This document shows, piece by piece, positions 2,417 through 64,000 of a stretch of 64,000 nt of DNA. The DNA comes from Octopus vulgaris (Eukaryota): NCBI GenBank assembly GCA_951406725.2, contig OX597817.1, positions 42,904,001-42,968,000 on the forward strand. The letters are read 5' to 3'. Both the position numbers and the translations under genes were made by a program. The notes under the pieces are model-generated. The model was given only the letters and a program-made list of their open reading frames with translations. It was not told the DNA's origin and ran no database searches. Each line of letters starts with the position of its first letter. Positions within the stretch are counted from its first letter, which is position 1.

Positions 2417-4195
2417 AGGTTGCAGATTTTGCAAGGTTTGGGTAAAGTATTCAGTGATGAGAGGAGTGAGGAGAAATACAGTAAGTGGGTAAATTAGGTG
2501 TGCTTCAGTGAGGGTAGTATACATATTTTTAGTTTACAAGAGTATTTTTGTTAACAGTAAAAGAATTGTGGTAATGGTAGAAGACCCAGAAGGAAAATAT
2601 AATGTGTCACTGAGCTGGAAGGTTGTAGTTTAGTGGTCAGCCTGTTAGCTGTCCTTTTGTTTGGTCATGGTCTAAGACGAATTTGTGAGTGTAGCAACTC
2701 ATCTCTCTGAGATATTTGAGCTATACTCTTGTGCGGGTTTAGGGTTAAGACACATATATGCATTGTATAAGGTCAGTAACTATCCAGAGTTGAGAAACTT
2801 TGTCGGTTTGAATATAGACTAAGGTTTTTGTGATGAAGTAAGTTTTGGCTACTTGATAAATTTGTAATCAGTAGGAGAGGTCAAGAGAAATCATGGTGTC
2901 TGGCATTTATAAAGTCTGGGAAAGTTTTTTGTCTTTGAAACAGCATGTAGATACTCTAGACAATGTTATGAGGCTACATCAAGGCATATCTTATTTTGCT
3001 CATATTTGTCTTTTATATATATATGTTGTAGTGGTCTCCTAATTGGTGGTGGTGGTGGTGGTGGTAAGAAATTGCTTTCAGCTTTTGTAGACAATAGTGT
3101 GACCAACAGCAGCAGTACAACACTGAATAAACCACTTGCAGAATTAGGAATTGAGCACTTTGGCTACGGGTGAGGGGGGGGGGCACAAAAAATAGCATAA
3201 ATCAATGGATAGATTGCAGTTTACTCTTATCACGAGAATCTATTAGGAATTTCATTTATTTCCTCATTTGTAATCTATTTGATCTGGATTTTTTTATATG
3301 AATTTATTTCTCCAATCTTTAAAATGACTATATTTTAATATAAACCTTTAGGTTTATAACAGGTAAAAATGTATTCAAGGTATGCATTCTCTGAGTTTAT
3401 GCAAAAGTAACATTAAGATTTTAATCCACTGGGATTTACTATTAAACAAGAGAACTGTGTTGACCTTTTAAGAATAAATCATTATATTGATGTATGGTTG
3501 TGTAATGTTCCTTCCAGTCTCTGTATACTTATGGTTGTACTGTATTAACCCTTCAAGCACTAACACTTTAGATTTCATTAAAGCGAGTAGCTACATCAAA
3601 GTGGCAGATGAATGTTACTACTAGTTTAATCCCAGGTGGATTCTCTGCCAGCTGGTTTTCAGTGCAAGCTCTGCACCCTTTATATACAGTGTATCACTAG
3701 CAGGGGGAGCGAACCCCTACCAGCTAACAGGATCACAGGACTGGCCCATTTTGAGCTATTTGGCTCACATCAGCCACACACACTTGCACAGTAATAAGCT
3801 AAGAGATTTCATTATAACAGTTTACAGAGTTAGTAGATTATTGATAGATACTGAATTTTTTACATAGTTTTTATATTTGGTATGACTTATTTAATTTGTT
3901 TACATTCATTAATTATAGATTTTCTTATTAATGAACATAGTTAAAGAAGATACCTGGTTATAGTATTTCATTTTTATTAATTGCAATTTGTATCAGTGTG
4001 GAAAATGCTGGTGTTTAATTTAGACTTGTAAAACTGTTTGTTAACATCATCAACAACTTCTTTTTGTAACTTAAGTTTTTGGCATGCAACATTAATGATA
4101 ACTGTAATTTTTTGGTGTTCTAGAGTTAAACTTCATCATTAAACAAGTTTGAGTACATCATTTATGTTAATAGTTTCCATCCTTTTCTTTGTCAG

Positions 4196-34376: not shown

Positions 34377-34824
34377 TGAGGGCACGTAACAAACACCATC
34401 CGAGCGTGGCCGTTCGCCAGCCTCGTCTGGCACCTGTGTCGGTGACACATAAGAAAACACCATCCGAGCGTGGCCGTCTGCCAGCCTCGTCTGGCACCTG
34501 TGTCGGTGGCACATAAAAAACACCATCCGAGCATGGCCGTCTGCCAGCCCCGTCTGGCACCTGTGTCGGTGGCACATAAAATCACCCACTACACTCTCGG
34601 AGTGGTTGGCGTTAGGAAGGGCATCCAGCTGTAGAAACACTGCCAGATCTGACTGGCCTGGTGCAGCCTTCGGGCTTGCCAGACCCCAGTTGAACCGTCC
34701 AACCCATGCTAGCATGGAAAGCGGACGTTAAACGATGATGATGATGATGATGATATATATATACATATATATATACGACGGGCTTCTTTCAGTTTCTGTC
34801 TACCAAATCCACTCACAAGGCTTT

Positions 34825-41800: not shown

Positions 41801-42576
41801 TCATCATCATCATCATCGTTTAACGTCCGTTTTCCATGCTAGCATGGGTTGGACGGTTTGACTGGGGTCTGGGAAGCCAGGAGGCTGCACCGGGCTCCAG
41901 TCTGATCTGGCAGTGTTTCTACAGCTGGATGTCCTTCCTAACACCAACCACTCTGTGAGTATAGTGGGTACTTTTTACGTGCCACTGGCACAGGGGCCAG
42001 AGGAGGCTGGCAGCAGCCATGATCGGTTGGTGCTTTTTACATGCCACCGGTACGGACGACAGTCAAGGCAACGCTGTCAACGGCCACATTCGGATGGTGC
42101 TTTTTATGTGACACTGGCATGGGTATGACAACTACAATTTCCATTTGATTTTTATTTTGATGTTGATGTAACTTAACTCAATAGGTCTCCTCAAGCACAG
42201 CAGGTCGCCCTACGATCCAAGGTGAGCACAGCAGGCTATCCTGCAAGCCATGAACTCAATTCATTTGTTGGGTCTTTGTAGTCACAGCATATCTCCAGAG
42301 ATCTCAGTCTTTCGTCATTGCCTCTGTGAGGCCCAACGTTTGAAGGTCATGCTTGACCACCTCATCCCATGTCTTCCTGGGTCTACCTCGACCCCGGATT
42401 CCTTCAACTGTTTAGGATGGCACTTCTTCACACATCTCTCCTCATCCATCCATAGTACATGACCATACCAGTGCAAACATCTCTCTTGCACGCCACATCC
42501 GATGCTTCTTATGTCCAACATTTCTCTCAGGATGCTTACACTCGGTCGTGTGTGCACACTGACATTACACATCCAT
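41801..42576 (-). mobile_element. RTE-clade LINE 3' fragment with 3' UTR and (GAT)n tail
   Basis: LREMLDIRSIGCGVQERCLHWYGHVLWMDEERCVKKC, then frameshifted GRPRKTWDEVVKHD; its 3' UTR is the family-C tail sequence. Confidence 0.8.
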
Positions 42577-50877: not shown

Positions 50878-51187
50878 GTCTTTGTCATTTATGTCAGCCT
50901 TGCAAATATATTCGTGCACTCTTTGGACCATTATTTAGGATCACAGATAACAGCCATTGAAAAACAGTTTAATTTGCAAAGCAAATCCTCAGGAATTCTC
51001 ATAAGTATAAATGATGTTGGATTTATATGTTCTGTGCTAGTTTTGGGTTATTTACTTAAGAACTGTCATAGACCAAGAGTGTTAGCTATTACCAACGTTA
51101 CAGTTGGTCTTGCGATTCTTATCTGTGCTCTGCCCTACTTTATTACACCACATCCAAAATGGAATACTAACCAAAACAACAATGGAG
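50878..51187 (+). CDS. SLCO/OATP exon (TM1-TM3)
   Basis: ttttcag|GTC; YLGSQITAIEKQFNLQSKSSGILISINDVG..CHRPRVLA..ICALPYF match OATP motifs (IE.RF...S...G.I, HRPR, LPHF); likely GC donor. Confidence 0.88.
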
Positions 51188-52399: not shown

Positions 52400-52630
52400 C
52401 CAATAGAACAATGTGGACTGATTTCAAATCAACACAGGATCCAGCTTTAAATACGAGTATTGAGTGCAATTTGATGGAAGAAGAATCCTTCACTGGTTCC
52501 AGTACAATTGGTTACTTCTTTATTTTTATTGGAATGCTGCTGATTGGTGTTGGAAAAGCTGCAAGATTTCCACTTGCCATTGCATACATTGATGAGAATG
52601 TAGATGAAGCCCACACTGGCGGCTATGTAG
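52400..52630 (+). CDS. SLCO/OATP exon (ECL2-TM4)
   Basis: gttgtttag|CC AAT; FIGMLLIGVGKAARFPLAIAYIDENV..TGGYV-G (OATP 'G.SYIDD.V' region); donor G|gtaagc. Confidence 0.88.
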
Positions 52631-53687
52631 GTAAGCATGAAATATTCTGTCAAATAGTTAAATATTGTATTTTAAGGCGGCAAGCTGGCAGAAACGTTAG
52701 CACACTGGGCGAAATGCTTAACAGTATTTCGTCTGCTGTTATGTTCTGAGTTCAAATTCCACTGAGGTCGACTTTGCCTTTCATCCTTTCGGGGGTCGAT
52801 TAAATAAGTACCAGTTACACACTAGGGTCGATGTAATCGACTTAATCTTTTTGTTTAACCTTTCTATGTTTAGCCCCCTGTGGGCAATAAAGAAACAAAT
52901 ATTGTATTTACTGGCATAAAAGATGCATGAGCATATTAGACAAATCCCAGTTTCAATCGTGCATATTCAGGAAAAAAATGCTTTTAGTGGATTAAAACAG
53001 GTAATATTCTACTCTAGGCACAAGTCCTGAAATTTTGTGGGAGGGGGCCAGTCGATTAGTCAACCCTAGTATGCAGCTGGTACTTAATTTATCGATCTCG
53101 AAAGGCTGAATGGCAAAGTTGACTTTGGTGGAATTTGAACTCAGAACATAAAGACATAGGAAATAATGCTAAGCATTTCGTCCTGCATGCTAATATTTCT
53201 GCCAGCTCACCACCAACTTAAGCAAGTGATATACAAAGCAATCACACATATAGGTCTGGGAACATGGAGATTCTTCCACATTCAGAGAACCAATGTGAAT
53301 AGACTGGTATTTAATAGTAGTCCATCATGTTTTAGAAGTTCCACTGGGATATTGACTGGGCCAGGAGACTTCTGCTGCTTCATGCAGTTGAGGGAAATCC
53401 GATATTCTTTGTCGGATGGTGGCATGTTCATCCAGTGTTGAGTTGGATGCATGGGTATGTGCTTCAAGAACACATGAAGGGTGTATTTTATGTGCCACTG
53501 GCACAGGTGCCAGTTATGTGACAAGGCACAGGTATGGCTGTGTGGTAAGAAGCTTGCTTCCCAATCACGTGGTTCTTTGTTCAGGCCCACTGCATGGCAT
53601 CTTGGGCAAGTGTTGTCTACTATAGGCTCAGGCCGACCAAAGCTTTATGAGAGGGATTTGGTAGACTGAAATTGAAAGAAGCCTGTC

Positions 53688-59177: not shown

Positions 59178-59716
59178 ATTGGCTTAGAATTAATTTTCTG
59201 AACTACTGAAAATAATTTTTTTCCTTTTATCTTGACAGATAAAATGCAGTGTTTATAGAAGGATTAACAAAGAGAGATTAACTTTAGGTGAATGACTTTG
59301 TCACTAAGTTACATATTTAAAACTTTATCAGATAGTGACATAACAAGTGTGTGAGGTACAGCTTTCCTGTTTATGTATTTTTGTTCAAACTCAGGCAGTT
59401 CTTATTCTGTCAACAATAGCATTATTGATTATAGGTTTCCAATAGATCGATCATAATTTTGCTGCTTTTCCAATGGTAAGTGTGAGAAGGAGATATCTGT
59501 GTAAGATTCGTGGAATAAATAACACAAGATATTTTACTTTGAGGTCTCCAGTTTATCTGTAAAGTGGATGGCATCAGGAAAGGTATAGAAACTACACCAG
59601 TGTCATTACTGGAGATTAGCACTGTCCAATGGCTCATTGGTTCCAATCAAACCATCCAAGCCATACCATTATGGTAAACAGACATTAAACAGCAATGAGG
59701 ATAATGATGATATATA

Positions 59717-59940
59717 TCATCATCATCATCATCATCGTTTAACGTCCGCTTTCCGCGCTAGCACGGGTTGGACGGTTTGACCGGGTCTGGGAAGCCAGGG
59801 GCCGCTCCAGGCTCCAGTCTGAATCTGGCAGAGTTTCTACGGCTGGATGCCCTTCCTAACGCCAACCACTCCGTGAGTGGATTGGGTGCTTTTACGTGCC
59901 ACCTGCACAGGGGCCGGAGGGTCCGGCATCGTCACGATCG
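59717..59940 (-). mobile_element. CpG-intact family-C/RTE-type 3' tail
   Basis: (cat)n cgtttaacgtccgctttccgcgctagcacgggttggacgg..; retains CpGs that read TG/CA in other copies. Confidence 0.85.
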
Positions 59941-60238
59941 ATTCGAGCATTTTAACGTGTCGGAAGGTTGGGGTAAGGAGGAACGATGGCAGGAAGGGTT
60001 GGTGTAGGTTCCTAAGAAATAAAAACGTAGGATATCACGAGGCGGGAGGGTACTAAAAGGGGATGGTCGGATTGAGGCAGTGTCAGGAGGAAGCGTAAGA
60101 TCGGTGGGCAGTTGATGAGCTATGGCGCTAGCAGCTTGTCTTTTCACAGTGAAAGCATATGAGGAGAAGGGGTAGTGGGGGGAGGAGGAGGGAGTAGGGC
60201 GTACCCGGTGTAGATGAGTAGGGCGTATCCGGTGTAGA

Positions 60239-60378
60239 TGGTGAGAACAGGGTATACTGGTATTGGTGGTGGGGGTGAGAACAGTGTCCACCGGTATTGG
60301 TGGTGGCGGTGAGAACAGTGTTCATCGGTATTGGTGGTGGGGGTGAGAACAGTGTTCATCGGTATTGGTGGTGGGGTT
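60239..60378. repeat. 33-bp minisatellite, about 4 copies, preceded by a 24-bp duplication (60192-60239)
   Basis: ggtgagaacagtgttcatcggtattggtggtgg repeated; gagtagggcgta(c/t)ccggtgtagat twice. Confidence 0.9.
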
Positions 60379-60392
60379 GGGGGGCGGGCGCA

Positions 60393-63300
60393 CCGCCAAT
60401 GGCGGAAAGAAGGGAAAAGATGGGATTACGGCTTGAGGTAGCCTAAGGTTAAATTTTGTAGAGAGAGAGATAGGAAAGATAAATCAAGTTATGGCGAAGG
60501 CTTGAAAGTAGCCTAAAAGGTTAAATTTTCGTAAATTTTCGATGGGTAAGACGAATCAAGTTATCAATGTATGAATAAACGTAGTAACAACGAATAAAAA
60601 TAGTAAGATAAATTTTTAAGAACTTGCTGCGGGCATCGACCGGGAGTTGAAGAAGAAAGTAAGTTGAATTGGGAGTTTAAATTGCAGAATCGTAATGGTA
60701 ATGGCAATTTTCAAGTTTTAGCATAAGAAGAAGAGGAGGAGGAAAGAAAGACCGCCAATGGCGGAAAGAAGGGAAAAGATGGGATTACGGCTTGAGGTAG
60801 CCTAAGGTTAAATTTTGTAGAGAGAGAGAGATAGGAAAGATAAATCAAGTTATGGCGAAGGCTTGAAAGTAGCCTAAAAGGTTAAATTTTCGTAAATTTT
60901 CGATGGGTAAGACGAATCAAGTTATCAATGTATGAATAAACGTAGTAACAACGAATAAAAATAGTAAGATAAATTTTTAAGAACTTGCTGCGGGCATCGA
61001 CCGGGAGTTGAAGAAGAAAGTAAGTTGAATTGGGAGTTTAAATTGCAGAATCGTAATGGTAATGGCGATTTTCAAGTTTTAGCATAAGAAGAAGAAGAGG
61101 AGGAAAGAAAGACCGCCAATGGCGGAAAGAAGGGAAGAGATGGGATTACGGCTTGAGGTAGCCTAAGGTTAAATTTTGTAGAGAGAGAGATAGGAAAGAT
61201 AAATCAAGTTATGGCGAAGGCTTGAAAGTAGCCTAAAAGGTTAAATTTTCGTAAATTTTCGATGGGTAAGACGAATCAAGTTATCAATGTATGAATAAAC
61301 GTAGTAACAACGAATAAAAATAGTAAGATAAATTTTTAAGAACTTGCTGCGGGCATCGACCGGGAGTTGAAGAAGAAAGTAAGTTGAATTGGGAGTTTAA
61401 ATTGCAGAATCGTAATGGTAATGGCGATTTTCAAGTTTTAGCATAAGAAGAAGAAGAGGAGGAAAGAAAGACCGCCAATGGCGGAAAGAAGGGAAGAGAT
61501 GGGATTACGGCTTGAGGTAGCCTAAGGTTAAATTTTGTAGAGAGAGAGATAGGAAAGATAAATCAAGTTATGGCGAAGGCTTGAAAGTAGCCTAAAAGGT
61601 TAAATTTTCGTAAATTTTCGATGGGTAAGACGAATCAAGTTATCAATGTATGAATAAACGTAGTAACAACGAATAAAAATAGTAAGATAAATTTTTAAGA
61701 ACTTGCTGCGGGCATCGACCGGGAGTTGAAGAAGAAAGTAAGTTGAATTGGGAGTTTAAATTGCAGAATCGTAATGGTAATGGCGATTTTCAAGTTTTAG
61801 CATAAGAAGAAGAAGAGGAGGAAAGAAAGACCGCCAATGGCGGAAAGAAGGGAAGAGATGGGATTACGGCTTGAGGTAGCCTAAGGTTAAATTTTGTAGA
61901 GAGAGAGATAGGAAAGATAAATCAAGTTATGGCGAAGGCTTGAAAGTAGCCTAAAAGGTTAAATTTTCGTAAATTTTCGATGGGTAAGACGAATCAAGTT
62001 ATCAATGTATGAATAAACGTAGTAACAACGAATAAAAATAGTAAGATAAATTTTTAAGAACTTGCTGCGGGCATCGACCGGGAGTTGAAGAAGAAAGTAA
62101 GTTGAATTGGGAGTTTAAATTGCAGAATCGTAATGGTAATGGCGATTTTCAAGTTTTAGCATAAGAAGAAGAAGAGGAGGAAAGAAAGACCGCCAATGGC
62201 GGAAAGAAGGGAAGAGATGGGATTACGGCTTGAGGTAGCCTAAGGTTAAATTTTGTAGAGAGAGAGATAGGAAAGATAAATCAAGTTATGGCGAAGGCTT
62301 GAAAGTAGCCTAAAAGGTTAAATTTTCGTAAATTTTCGATGGGTAAGACGAATCAAGTTATCAATGTATGAATAAACGTAGTAACAACGAATAAAAATAG
62401 TAAGATAAATTTTTAAGAACTTGCTGCGGGCATCGACCGGGAGTTGAAGAAGAAAGTAAGTTGAATTGGGAGTTTAAATTGCAGAATCGTAATGGTAATG
62501 GCGATTTTCAAGTTTTAGCATAAGAAGAAGAAGAGGAGGAAAGAAAGACCGCCAATGGCGGAAAGAAGGAAGAGATGGGATTACGGCTTGAGGTAGCCTA
62601 AGGTTAAATTTTGTAGAGAGAGAGATAGGAAAGATAAATCAAGTTATGGCGAAGGCTTGAAAGTAGCCTAAAAGGTTAAATTTTCGTAAATTTTCGATGG
62701 GTAAGACGAATCAAGTTATCAATGTATGAATAAACGTAGTAACAACGAATAAAAATAGTAAGATAAATTTTTAAGAACTTGCTGCGGGCATCGACTTGGA
62801 GTTGAAGAAGAAAGTAAGTTGAATTGGGAGTTTAAATTGCAGAATCGTAATGGTAATGGCGATTTTCAAGTTTTAGCATAAGAAGAAGAAGAGGAGGAAA
62901 GAAAGACCGCCAATGGCGGAAAGAAGGGAAGAGATGGGATTACGGCTTGAGGTAGCCTAAGGTTAAATTTTGTAGAGAGAGAGATAGGAAAGATAAATCA
63001 AGTTATGGCGAAGGCTTGAAAGTAGCCTAAAAGGTTAAATTTTCGTAAATTTTCGATGGGTAAGACGAATCAAGTTATCAATGTATGAATAAACGTAGTA
63101 ACAACGAATAAAAATAGTAAGATAAATTTTTAAGAACTTGCTGCGGGCATCGACCGGGAGTTGAAGAAGAAAGTAAGTTGAATTGGGAGTTTAAATTGCA
63201 GAATCGTAATGGTAATGGCGATTTTCAAGTTTTAGCATAAGAAGAAGAAGAGGAGGAAAGAAAGACCGCCAATGGCGGAAAGAAGGGAAGAGATGGGATT

Positions 63301-64000
63301 ACGGCTTGAGGTAGCCTAAGGTTAAATTTTGTAGAGAGAGAGATAGGAAAGATAAATCAAGTTATGGCGAAGGCTTGAAAGTAGCCTAAAAGGTTAAATT
63401 TTCGTAAATTTTCGATGGGTAAGACGAATCAAGTTATCAATGTATGAATAAACGTAGTAACAACGAATAAAAATAGTAAGATAAATTTTTAAGAACTTGC
63501 TGCGGGCATCGACCGGGAGTTGAAGAAGAAAGTAAGTTGAATTGGGAGTTTAAATTGCAGAATCGTAATGGTAATGGCGATTTTCAAGTTTTAGCATAAG
63601 AAGAAGAAGAGGAGGAAAGAAAGACCGCCAATGGCGGAAAGAAGGAAAAGATGGGATTACGGCGTGAGGTAGCCTAAGGTTAAATTTTGTAGAGAGAGAG
63701 ATAGGAAAGATAAATCAAGTTATGGCGAAGGCTTGAAAGTAGCCTAAAAGGTTAAATTTTCGTAAATTTTCGATGGGTAAGACGAATCAAGTTATCAATG
63801 TATGAATAAACGTAGTAACAACGAATAAAAATAGTAAGATAAATTTTTAAGAACTTGCTGCGGGCATCGACCGGGAGTTGAAGAAGAAAGTAAGTTGAAT
63901 TGGGAGTTTAAATTGCAGAATCGTAATGGTAATGGCGATTTTCAAGTTTTAGCATAAGAAGAAGAAGAGGAGGAAAGAAAGACCGCCAATGGCGGAAAGA
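60393..64000. repeat. 359-bp tandem array, 10 full units plus start of an 11th
   Basis: Unit starts (ccgccaatggcgg) at 60393, 60752, 61113, 61472, 61831, 62190, 62549, 62907, 63266, 63625, 63983; only a few differences between units. Confidence 0.98.

Follow-up and report, generated by a model that had tools for sequence, protein, structure and literature searches.

An ORF-less internal deletion derivative of a young RTE-like LINE of Octopus vulgaris that carries a tandem array of 5′ monomers

We have analyzed a stretch of 64,000 nucleotides from the genome of Octopus vulgaris (contig OX597817.1, positions 42,904,001 to 42,968,000; G000:C4:42904001-42968000 in the searched assembly of 2.8 Gb and 227 contigs), referred to here as the window. 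Near its right-hand end a tandem array of 359-bp units is followed, on the minus strand, by shorter repeats, a unique spacer and a 3′ tail of the type found on RTE long interspersed nuclear elements (LINEs). By its sequence, this element is an internal deletion of the autonomous LINE that supplies its tail. The overall reading, to which we give a probability of about 0.8, is that the element is an internally deleted copy, lacking an open reading frame (ORF), of a young RTE-like LINE; it would have been copied through RNA by the protein of the intact LINE, and its monomers would act as a repeated internal promoter. The structural part of this reading, a bipartite LINE derivative whose parent has a satellite-scale 5′ monomer array like that of mouse L1, seems to us nearly certain.

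At several loci the spacer runs on into a long ORF instead of the tail. In the reference copy L087 the array is followed by a 5′ untranslated region (UTR) of 572 bp comprising a variable number tandem repeat (VNTR) and the spacer, a frame of 1095 amino acids (counted stop to stop), a 3′ UTR of ∼230 bp and (GAT)n. Across the family the 3′ end consists of the ∼230 bp 3′ UTR and (ATG)3-14. The single ORF contains an apurinic/apyrimidinic endonuclease and a reverse transcriptase (APE-RT), matching Exo_endo_phos and RVT_1 above the Pfam cut-off in L087, and there is neither ORF1 nor RNase H. A single APE-RT ORF with no ORF1 and no RNase H, and a short 3′ UTR that ends in a microsatellite, define the RTE elements, and on this architecture the LINE is likely a member of the RTE clade. 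Homologues of the ORF, with up to ∼52% identity over the full length, share the architecture. A PHD-like cysteine finger, below the Pfam cut-off, lies at residues 796-839 of the L087 ORF, right behind the RT core, and many homologues have one.

Full-length copies make up 43 of the 132 elements typed. The ORF remains open for at least 1000 amino acids from the endonuclease motif in 23 of 41 (two copies lacking this anchor motif were left out), and these 23 are candidates for active LINEs in the Octopus vulgaris genome. In just nine of the 41 does the first ATG upstream share the frame of the endonuclease, and C-homopolymers lie in between; translation from another codon, a frameshift or an error in the assembly could each explain this.

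The window copy corresponds to positions 1-440 of L087 joined to position 3859 through to the end (written 440::3859). The ORF deletion ends in the middle of the stop codon, and there is no microhomology at the junction. A junction 22-mer has seven exact matches on five contigs, and two inexact matches bring the total to nine dispersed copies. The seven that span the compared stretch have 0-9 differences in 457 bp, the four with a full monomer form a single monomer clade (support 100/99), and three of the nine are 5′-truncated before the array. The junction shared by nine dispersed copies, with the monomers inherited along with it, argues that the element is mobile as a unit.

The family contains further junctions: 506::3855, ∼436::3791-3809, 481::3724, 555::3709 with its descendants (the commonest), 586::3733, 305::3577, 595::2050 and one join of a monomer to position 1315. 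There have been at least nine separate deletions, four of which were amplified, and the monomer-VNTR block is retained in all deletion classes except for one single copy (L140). Splicing was rejected as the cause, there being no GT-AG at the nine junctions examined. None of the contigs among the matches listed bridges the junction of the window element itself. Two side observations concern these derivatives. One sub-lineage (L081, L008, L037, L038) has a (TTAGGG)n-like local expansion within the spacer, situated at one deletion breakpoint; and full-length, 440::3859 and 563::3709 members all lie within one TA-rich microsatellite tract at G000:C11:53937500-53955999 (L088, L148).

The preliminary description of this DNA had proposed a composite retroposon mobilized by an RTE, with a borrowed LINE tail as in SVA. 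An independent satellite and VNTR captured ahead of a borrowed RTE 3′ tail would suit the modular look and the sharp change in composition from array (37% GC) to VNTR (58%). However, the autonomous element is headed by the same array, VNTR and spacer: these make up the 5′ UTR of the very LINE from which the tail derives. Free monomer arrays were not found in the assembly. A composite of unrelated parts is thus largely refuted, and we regard it as very improbable. What stands from the earlier proposal is that the array is part of one young retroposon, non-autonomous and ending in an RTE-type tail, and is no ordinary satellite.

The association of the monomers with the LINE holds across the genome. 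The spacer-VNTR-monomer stretch gave 668 candidate matches, and all 39 that were scored, on many contigs, had 95-100% identity. Exact-pattern counts were 42 for a 22-mer at the VNTR/array border, 271 for a 5′ UTR 22-mer, 612 for a 26-mer of the young tail and 1471 for a monomer 22-mer; the reversed-pattern controls were all zero. The junctions, on whose multiplicity the earlier proposal depended, are evidently multi-copy. Arrays lie directly 5′ of a LINE body, in the same polarity, in 74 cases out of 74 (the inverted segment of L095 makes up a 75th entry). When loci were picked by monomer similarity alone (38 of 247 candidates scored), all 16 new ones were on a LINE body, and the monomer 22-mer matches examined (100 listed of the 1471) were all inside LINE-attached arrays. 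Moreover, the number of monomer matches predicted genome-wide from 84 copies of the LINE is 1583, so with the 1471 seen a sizeable satellite free of the LINE has no place in the assembled sequence. A 359-bp unit free of the LINE, which the preliminary description had set against its own proposal, was not found.

Those 84 copies are an unbiased sample, being all elements with the 5′ UTR 22-mer on C1-C5. It contains 25 full-length copies; 75 copies have monomers, 12 of them over 10, and the median unit number is 1.8. Unit length is specific to the lineage, mostly 247-392 bp. Identical units occur at different loci, and units within a locus are often identical (22 of 22 at L170). The longest array, 39.4 kb with ∼124 units of 317 bp, is at G000:C2:127450017-127489400 (L178, L221, L229, L234-L235) and sits on a short deletion derivative; its unit variant near the body differs from the distal one, and each is also found at a different locus. 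A full-length copy, L147, bears an array of 13.6 kb. Other long arrays measure at least 14.6 kb (L167, ending at a gap), 14.2, 12.6 (with a gap inside), 11.3, 9.2 and 7.5 kb.

Long near-identical arrays are easily mis-sized, and two of these touch N gaps (L167, L182), as might be expected if we were dealing with an assembly artefact, or with an ordinary satellite that a short derivative of an RTE had entered or landed next to. Yet the border falls at the same base and in the same polarity at dozens of unlinked loci, LINE-attached arrays account for the monomer matches, and independent-run contigs join across the 555::3709 deletion (with 30 letters on the short side). We consider such an explanation the most improbable of all. 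In the assembled sequence the window element is not free-standing satellite DNA, and the LINE family scatters satellite-like arrays through the genome.

Extension to the right, as suggested earlier, reaches the end of the array 714 bp outside the window (∼G000:C4:42968714) at an (AT)9 run (L031:714-731). The array thus has 12.0 units in total (∼4.32 kb) in an ORF-less element of ∼5.0 kb, whose 3′ flank is (AT)4. The tail is CpG-intact and of the same type as that of a LINE fragment at 41801-42576 in the window, as had been noted (85% identity, 206 of 241; 14 CpG versus 6). Eleven further places in the window resemble the tail with 74-87% identity, so that this fragment is an older relative and not the source. 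The CpG observed/expected ratio is 1.51 in the array and 0.37 in the remaining window, and in the family it is 1.4-1.5 in the monomers versus 0.34 in the ORF.

What would drive transcription of such elements? L001 and L087 have no tRNA, 5S or 7SL head (Rfam gave none at E ≤ 1), and no match was found to crude patterns of the polymerase III A and B boxes. Some RTEs carry an HDV-like ribozyme that fixes the 5′ end. Here neither Rfam nor a crude pattern gave a match to a hammerhead or HDV ribozyme, although divergent ribozymes would escape this search. These results, together with the 5′-terminal position of the monomers, their retention of CpG, the 75 of 84 copies that reach into the array and the analogy with mouse L1, make a promoter role for the monomers a fairly probable prediction. 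RNA polymerase II would then start at some point inside the array, and the APE-RT protein of a full-length element would bind the 3′ UTR and (GAT)n tail that the derivative has kept, prime on an AT-rich nick and copy back into the array. Incomplete copying would generate variable monomer numbers, with redundancy preserving a promoter after each truncation, and growth of the array likely balances the loss of monomers. Short arrays would likely be carried in the RNA, and those of 10-39 kb probably gained additional units at the DNA level once inserted. Contigs from runs that we guess to be of RNA cover the element and its monomers; strand, start and level are not visible in them and the element is multi-copy, so we draw no conclusion on expression. 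The loose contig ends of one run resemble what we take to be a template-switch adapter, one of them antisense inside a monomer; this is a single contig and may reflect strand invasion.

Copying by way of RNA is suggested by the (ATG)3-14 tails, by 5′ ends that occur at all phases of the monomer, with a broad bias and no fixed start, by an inversion at L095 and by duplications of the flanks. Target site duplications (TSDs) were studied in the 100 elements for which the two ends could be used; another 16 were set aside (mis-called ends, gaps, inversion), and others were left out for a missing array or an unrecognized tail. The targets include TA microsatellites: the tail is followed directly by (AT)4 in 53 of the 100, and there is a TA run on the 5′ side in 66. 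The mean flank duplication was 9.5 bp, compared with 8.0 ± 0.4 bp for 300 shuffled pairings (top shuffle 9.65). For the 40 elements with no 3′ TA run the values were 5.2 and 3.8 ± 0.3 bp, and none of 500 shuffles was as high. At L023, L088b, L187 and L089, flank duplications of 19-26 bp occur in interrupted microsatellites. With (AT)n on either side, the window element yields no informative TSD. A contig labelled as another organism (X16) covers its left flank and breaks off at the microsatellite, its last position being 59707, so that it speaks neither for nor against an empty site. At L095, about two monomers are inverted at the 5′ end. A 5′ inversion is the pattern left by twin priming, which at this locus would put at least four monomers in the RNA template.

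The absence of a fixed 5′ end could also be explained if the monomers were passengers, with the RT at the 5′ end of the RNA jumping back by homology, onto this or a second RNA, and re-copying the terminal few hundred bases so that the array is built during insertion, while transcription came from the spacer or VNTR or from host read-through. The frequent identity of units within a locus, the lack of a common unit order in sister arrays and the existence of copies without monomers are in keeping with this, and the many deletion junctions hint that cDNA synthesis in the family may switch templates. However, re-copying de novo, with 5′ ends as scattered as these, would give periods specific to each locus, whereas each lineage keeps to constant unit borders and lengths, and different loci have identical units in common. 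The retention of CpG in the array, and of the monomer-VNTR block in the deletion classes, also speak against passengers. We judge this explanation unlikely, if less so than the two discussed above, and prefer the monomers as promoter.

Several observations weigh against our reading. Many insertions, that in the window included, have no diagnostic TSD. The 5′ ends mark no sharp start: their phase is biased among the 85 copies with a full unit (R = 0.29, p = 0.001), but among 51 copies with two units R = 0.20 and p = 0.12, with at least five mis-called ends included. Nine of the 84 unbiased copies have no monomers, and two 440::3859 copies share a monomer-less end, so that copying without monomers may occur; in these two, L151 and L157, the 5′ end is identical, at reference position 307, and the flanks differ. 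The order of unit variants differs between sister arrays, and private substitutions are ∼4-fold fewer in arrays (19 in 57,558 bp) than in bodies (8 in 6,178 bp; p = 0.003). A YY1-like palindrome at the unit border, like a motif in the portion of PMC5381506 available to us, was dropped as support for the promoter: in a comparison of 71 monomers its conservation is poor and ranks with the lowest in the unit. The promoter role is a prediction from indirect evidence, and the RTE assignment rests on architecture, the 120 homologues listed bearing no clade name.

The differing variant order and the deficit of private substitutions both argue against long arrays having just been copied in one piece. 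They fit later expansion or homogenization in DNA, although polishing of the assembly could cause the deficit. Long arrays are concentrated in one lineage (8 of 22 versus 4 of 62, p = 0.002, kin not being independent), which fits inheritance from long-array sources. We therefore favor mixed growth, in which a few to a dozen units move in RNA and the largest arrays expand later. Private substitutions amount to 0.39% in the window lineage (six copies) and 0.10% in the 563::3709 lineage (24 copies). Provided that the rate of 0.0036 per My given in the accessible part of PMC13282606 suits this host, the respective ages are ∼1 My and ∼0.3 My. With sibling copies as young as those of the 24-copy lineage and arrays of less than one to ∼124 units, growth in RNA versus DNA becomes directly testable.

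A sister family has the same layout. Its example at L238:2303-4074 (G000:C12:44076302-44078073) has a 228-bp unit repeated 4.6 times, ahead of a VNTR that is related to the one described above; the likeness is ∼70% in the spacer and 94% in the tail. Further members are at L240-L268, and monomers of the family measure 222-333 bp. All 25 loci analyzed from a search with it read monomer, spacer, tail and are ORF-less, and no autonomous partner was found among them. Homology between the 359-bp and sister monomers gave p from 0.003 to 0.89 over 18 combinations of scoring and pair, and a profile search did no better than shuffles. Whether or not the monomers are homologous, the common layout indicates that this architecture predates the family studied here. 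A broader proposal, to which we give even odds, is that an RTE-type LINE independently evolved a monomer promoter like that of mouse L1, swaps or remodels the monomer between sister families and acts as a satellite factory, its arrays being moved through RNA by the LINE and its ORF-less derivatives and then growing to tens of kb within a few hundred thousand years.

The coordinates of the modules are collected in Table 1. The preliminary description had placed them correctly (Tandem Repeats Finder, TRF, returns the 24-bp repeat and the array, and the unique stretch is where it was said to be), except that its 33-bp repeat is one of 34 bp.

Table 1. Features of the window copy, in window coordinates; the element lies on the minus strand, so that the rows begin with its 3′ end
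Feature	Position	Strand	Remarks
AT microsatellite at 3′ end of element, (AT)4	59710..59717		Possible short TSD in TA microsatellite target; not diagnostic
3′ terminal microsatellite, (ATG)6 / (GAT)n	59718..59735	-	Six ATG triplets read
3′ UTR of young LINE	59736..59961	-	L087 from 3859 on; begins within ORF stop codon
Internal-deletion junction 440::3859	59961..59962	-	3418 bp gone, comprising the complete ORF and the last part of the 5′ UTR; blunt join that lacks a splice signal
Non-repeated LINE 5′ UTR, unique spacer	59962..60191	-	Position tether-like
24-bp repeat x 2.0	60192..60240	-	TRF; belongs to LINE 5′ UTR
34-bp VNTR x 4.0	60240..60376	-	TRF; belongs to LINE 5′ UTR; copy number differs among loci
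Tandem 359-bp 5′ monomers, CpG-rich, predicted promoter	60392..64000	-	TRF, 99% matches; 10.1 units inside window
5′-truncated older related LINE copy	41801..42576	-	Outside element; versus young family, 88% nucleotide identity at ORF end and 84% in 3′ UTR

Matches to exons of PF03137 (OATP/SLCO transporter) lie on the plus strand at 50878-51183 and 52435-52635 in the window, and beyond it at L031:3199-3393 (C4:42971199), G000:C4:42987574 and 43001950. The element is antisense between these matches and so likely lies within an intron of an SLCO-type gene. Older repeats with tandem units of 61-66 bp beside the same 3′ tail are abundant (34381-34581 and 41990-42120 in the window; L031:4505-5201) and are likely short derivatives of older RTE families. 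The segment 56000-58520 has a strong T and G skew, and resembles a reverse-strand coding piece of another retroelement.

Bipartite derivatives of RTE LINEs are already known; what may be new here is an RTE-type parent with a tandem 5′ monomer array of satellite scale. In the portion of PMC5786205 available to us (Kojima, 2018), the bipartite pattern is described for RTE, Ingi, Vingi and R2. The RTE examples there (Bov-A, RTESINE1/2, MAR4_MD, WALLSI3) likewise consist of the 5′ and 3′ parts of one LINE with the ORF deleted, with a microsatellite tail, no RNA-gene head and several independent amplified deletions. They differ from the octopus elements, whose 5′ part is a kilobase tandem array, whose derivatives range from <1 kb to ∼40 kb and which have no fixed 5′ end; the word ‘tandem’ is absent from the main text of that paper. 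SVA and LAVA are non-autonomous, VNTR-bearing, LINE-mobilized elements with parts of unrelated origin, whereas all parts of the window element are collinear pieces of one LINE.

The likeness drawn earlier to the L1 monomers of rodents has proved apt, with variable tandem monomers at the 5′ end followed by a tether. As far as the available text of PMC6454616, PMC9022269 and PMC5381506 goes, mouse L1Md (A, Tf, Gf) begins with a variable number of tandem monomers rich in CpG, of types that differ between subfamilies; the first monomer is truncated, and a tether that is not repeated separates the monomers from the ORF. The accessible part of PMC6454616 treats 5′-terminal monomer arrays as a special feature of mouse L1, with an unclear mechanism of duplication. 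Unlike L1Md, the octopus LINE has one APE-RT ORF and no ORF1, its units are of 250-390 bp, its arrays reach ∼124 units with no sharp common truncation site, and its promoter activity is predicted. More than 10 monomers are present in 12 of 84 octopus copies versus 7 of 5765 mouse L1 loci (in the available part of PMC9022269). With its single ORF and no ORF1, the octopus LINE may at most work like L1Md and is not a member of L1; the mouse-L1-like layout is now seen in a LINE of different architecture.

RTE-2_OV, previously described in Octopus vulgaris, is likewise a single-ORF RTE-type LINE of ∼1100 amino acids that has a zinc finger and whose 5′ UTR measures ∼600 nt, but in the portion of PMC9115989 available its 3′ UTR is mostly microsatellite and no monomers are reported. 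Identity with the present LINE was rejected, as five of its published primers have at best 6-7 mismatches of 20 in the element. No RTE with tandem monomers at its 5′ end, as in mouse L1, came up in the literature searched; the family may be listed in Repbase, in Dfam or in the library of PMC13282606, which lay outside that search. That this monomer-bearing LINE is absent from the literature is, on balance, somewhat probable.

Finally, transposon segments have given rise to arrays of satellite length in other systems. The part of PMC9659126 accessible to us presents a cetacean satellite from an L1 3′ end, 18HT from HeT-A and the central repeats of Helitrons; its cases include no satellite from a LINE 5′ UTR, and ‘RTE’ does not occur there as a word. 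In contrast to these examples, the octopus arrays remain in register on the 5′ end of a young and likely mobile LINE, so that satellite-length arrays are caught here while still joined to their source transposon.

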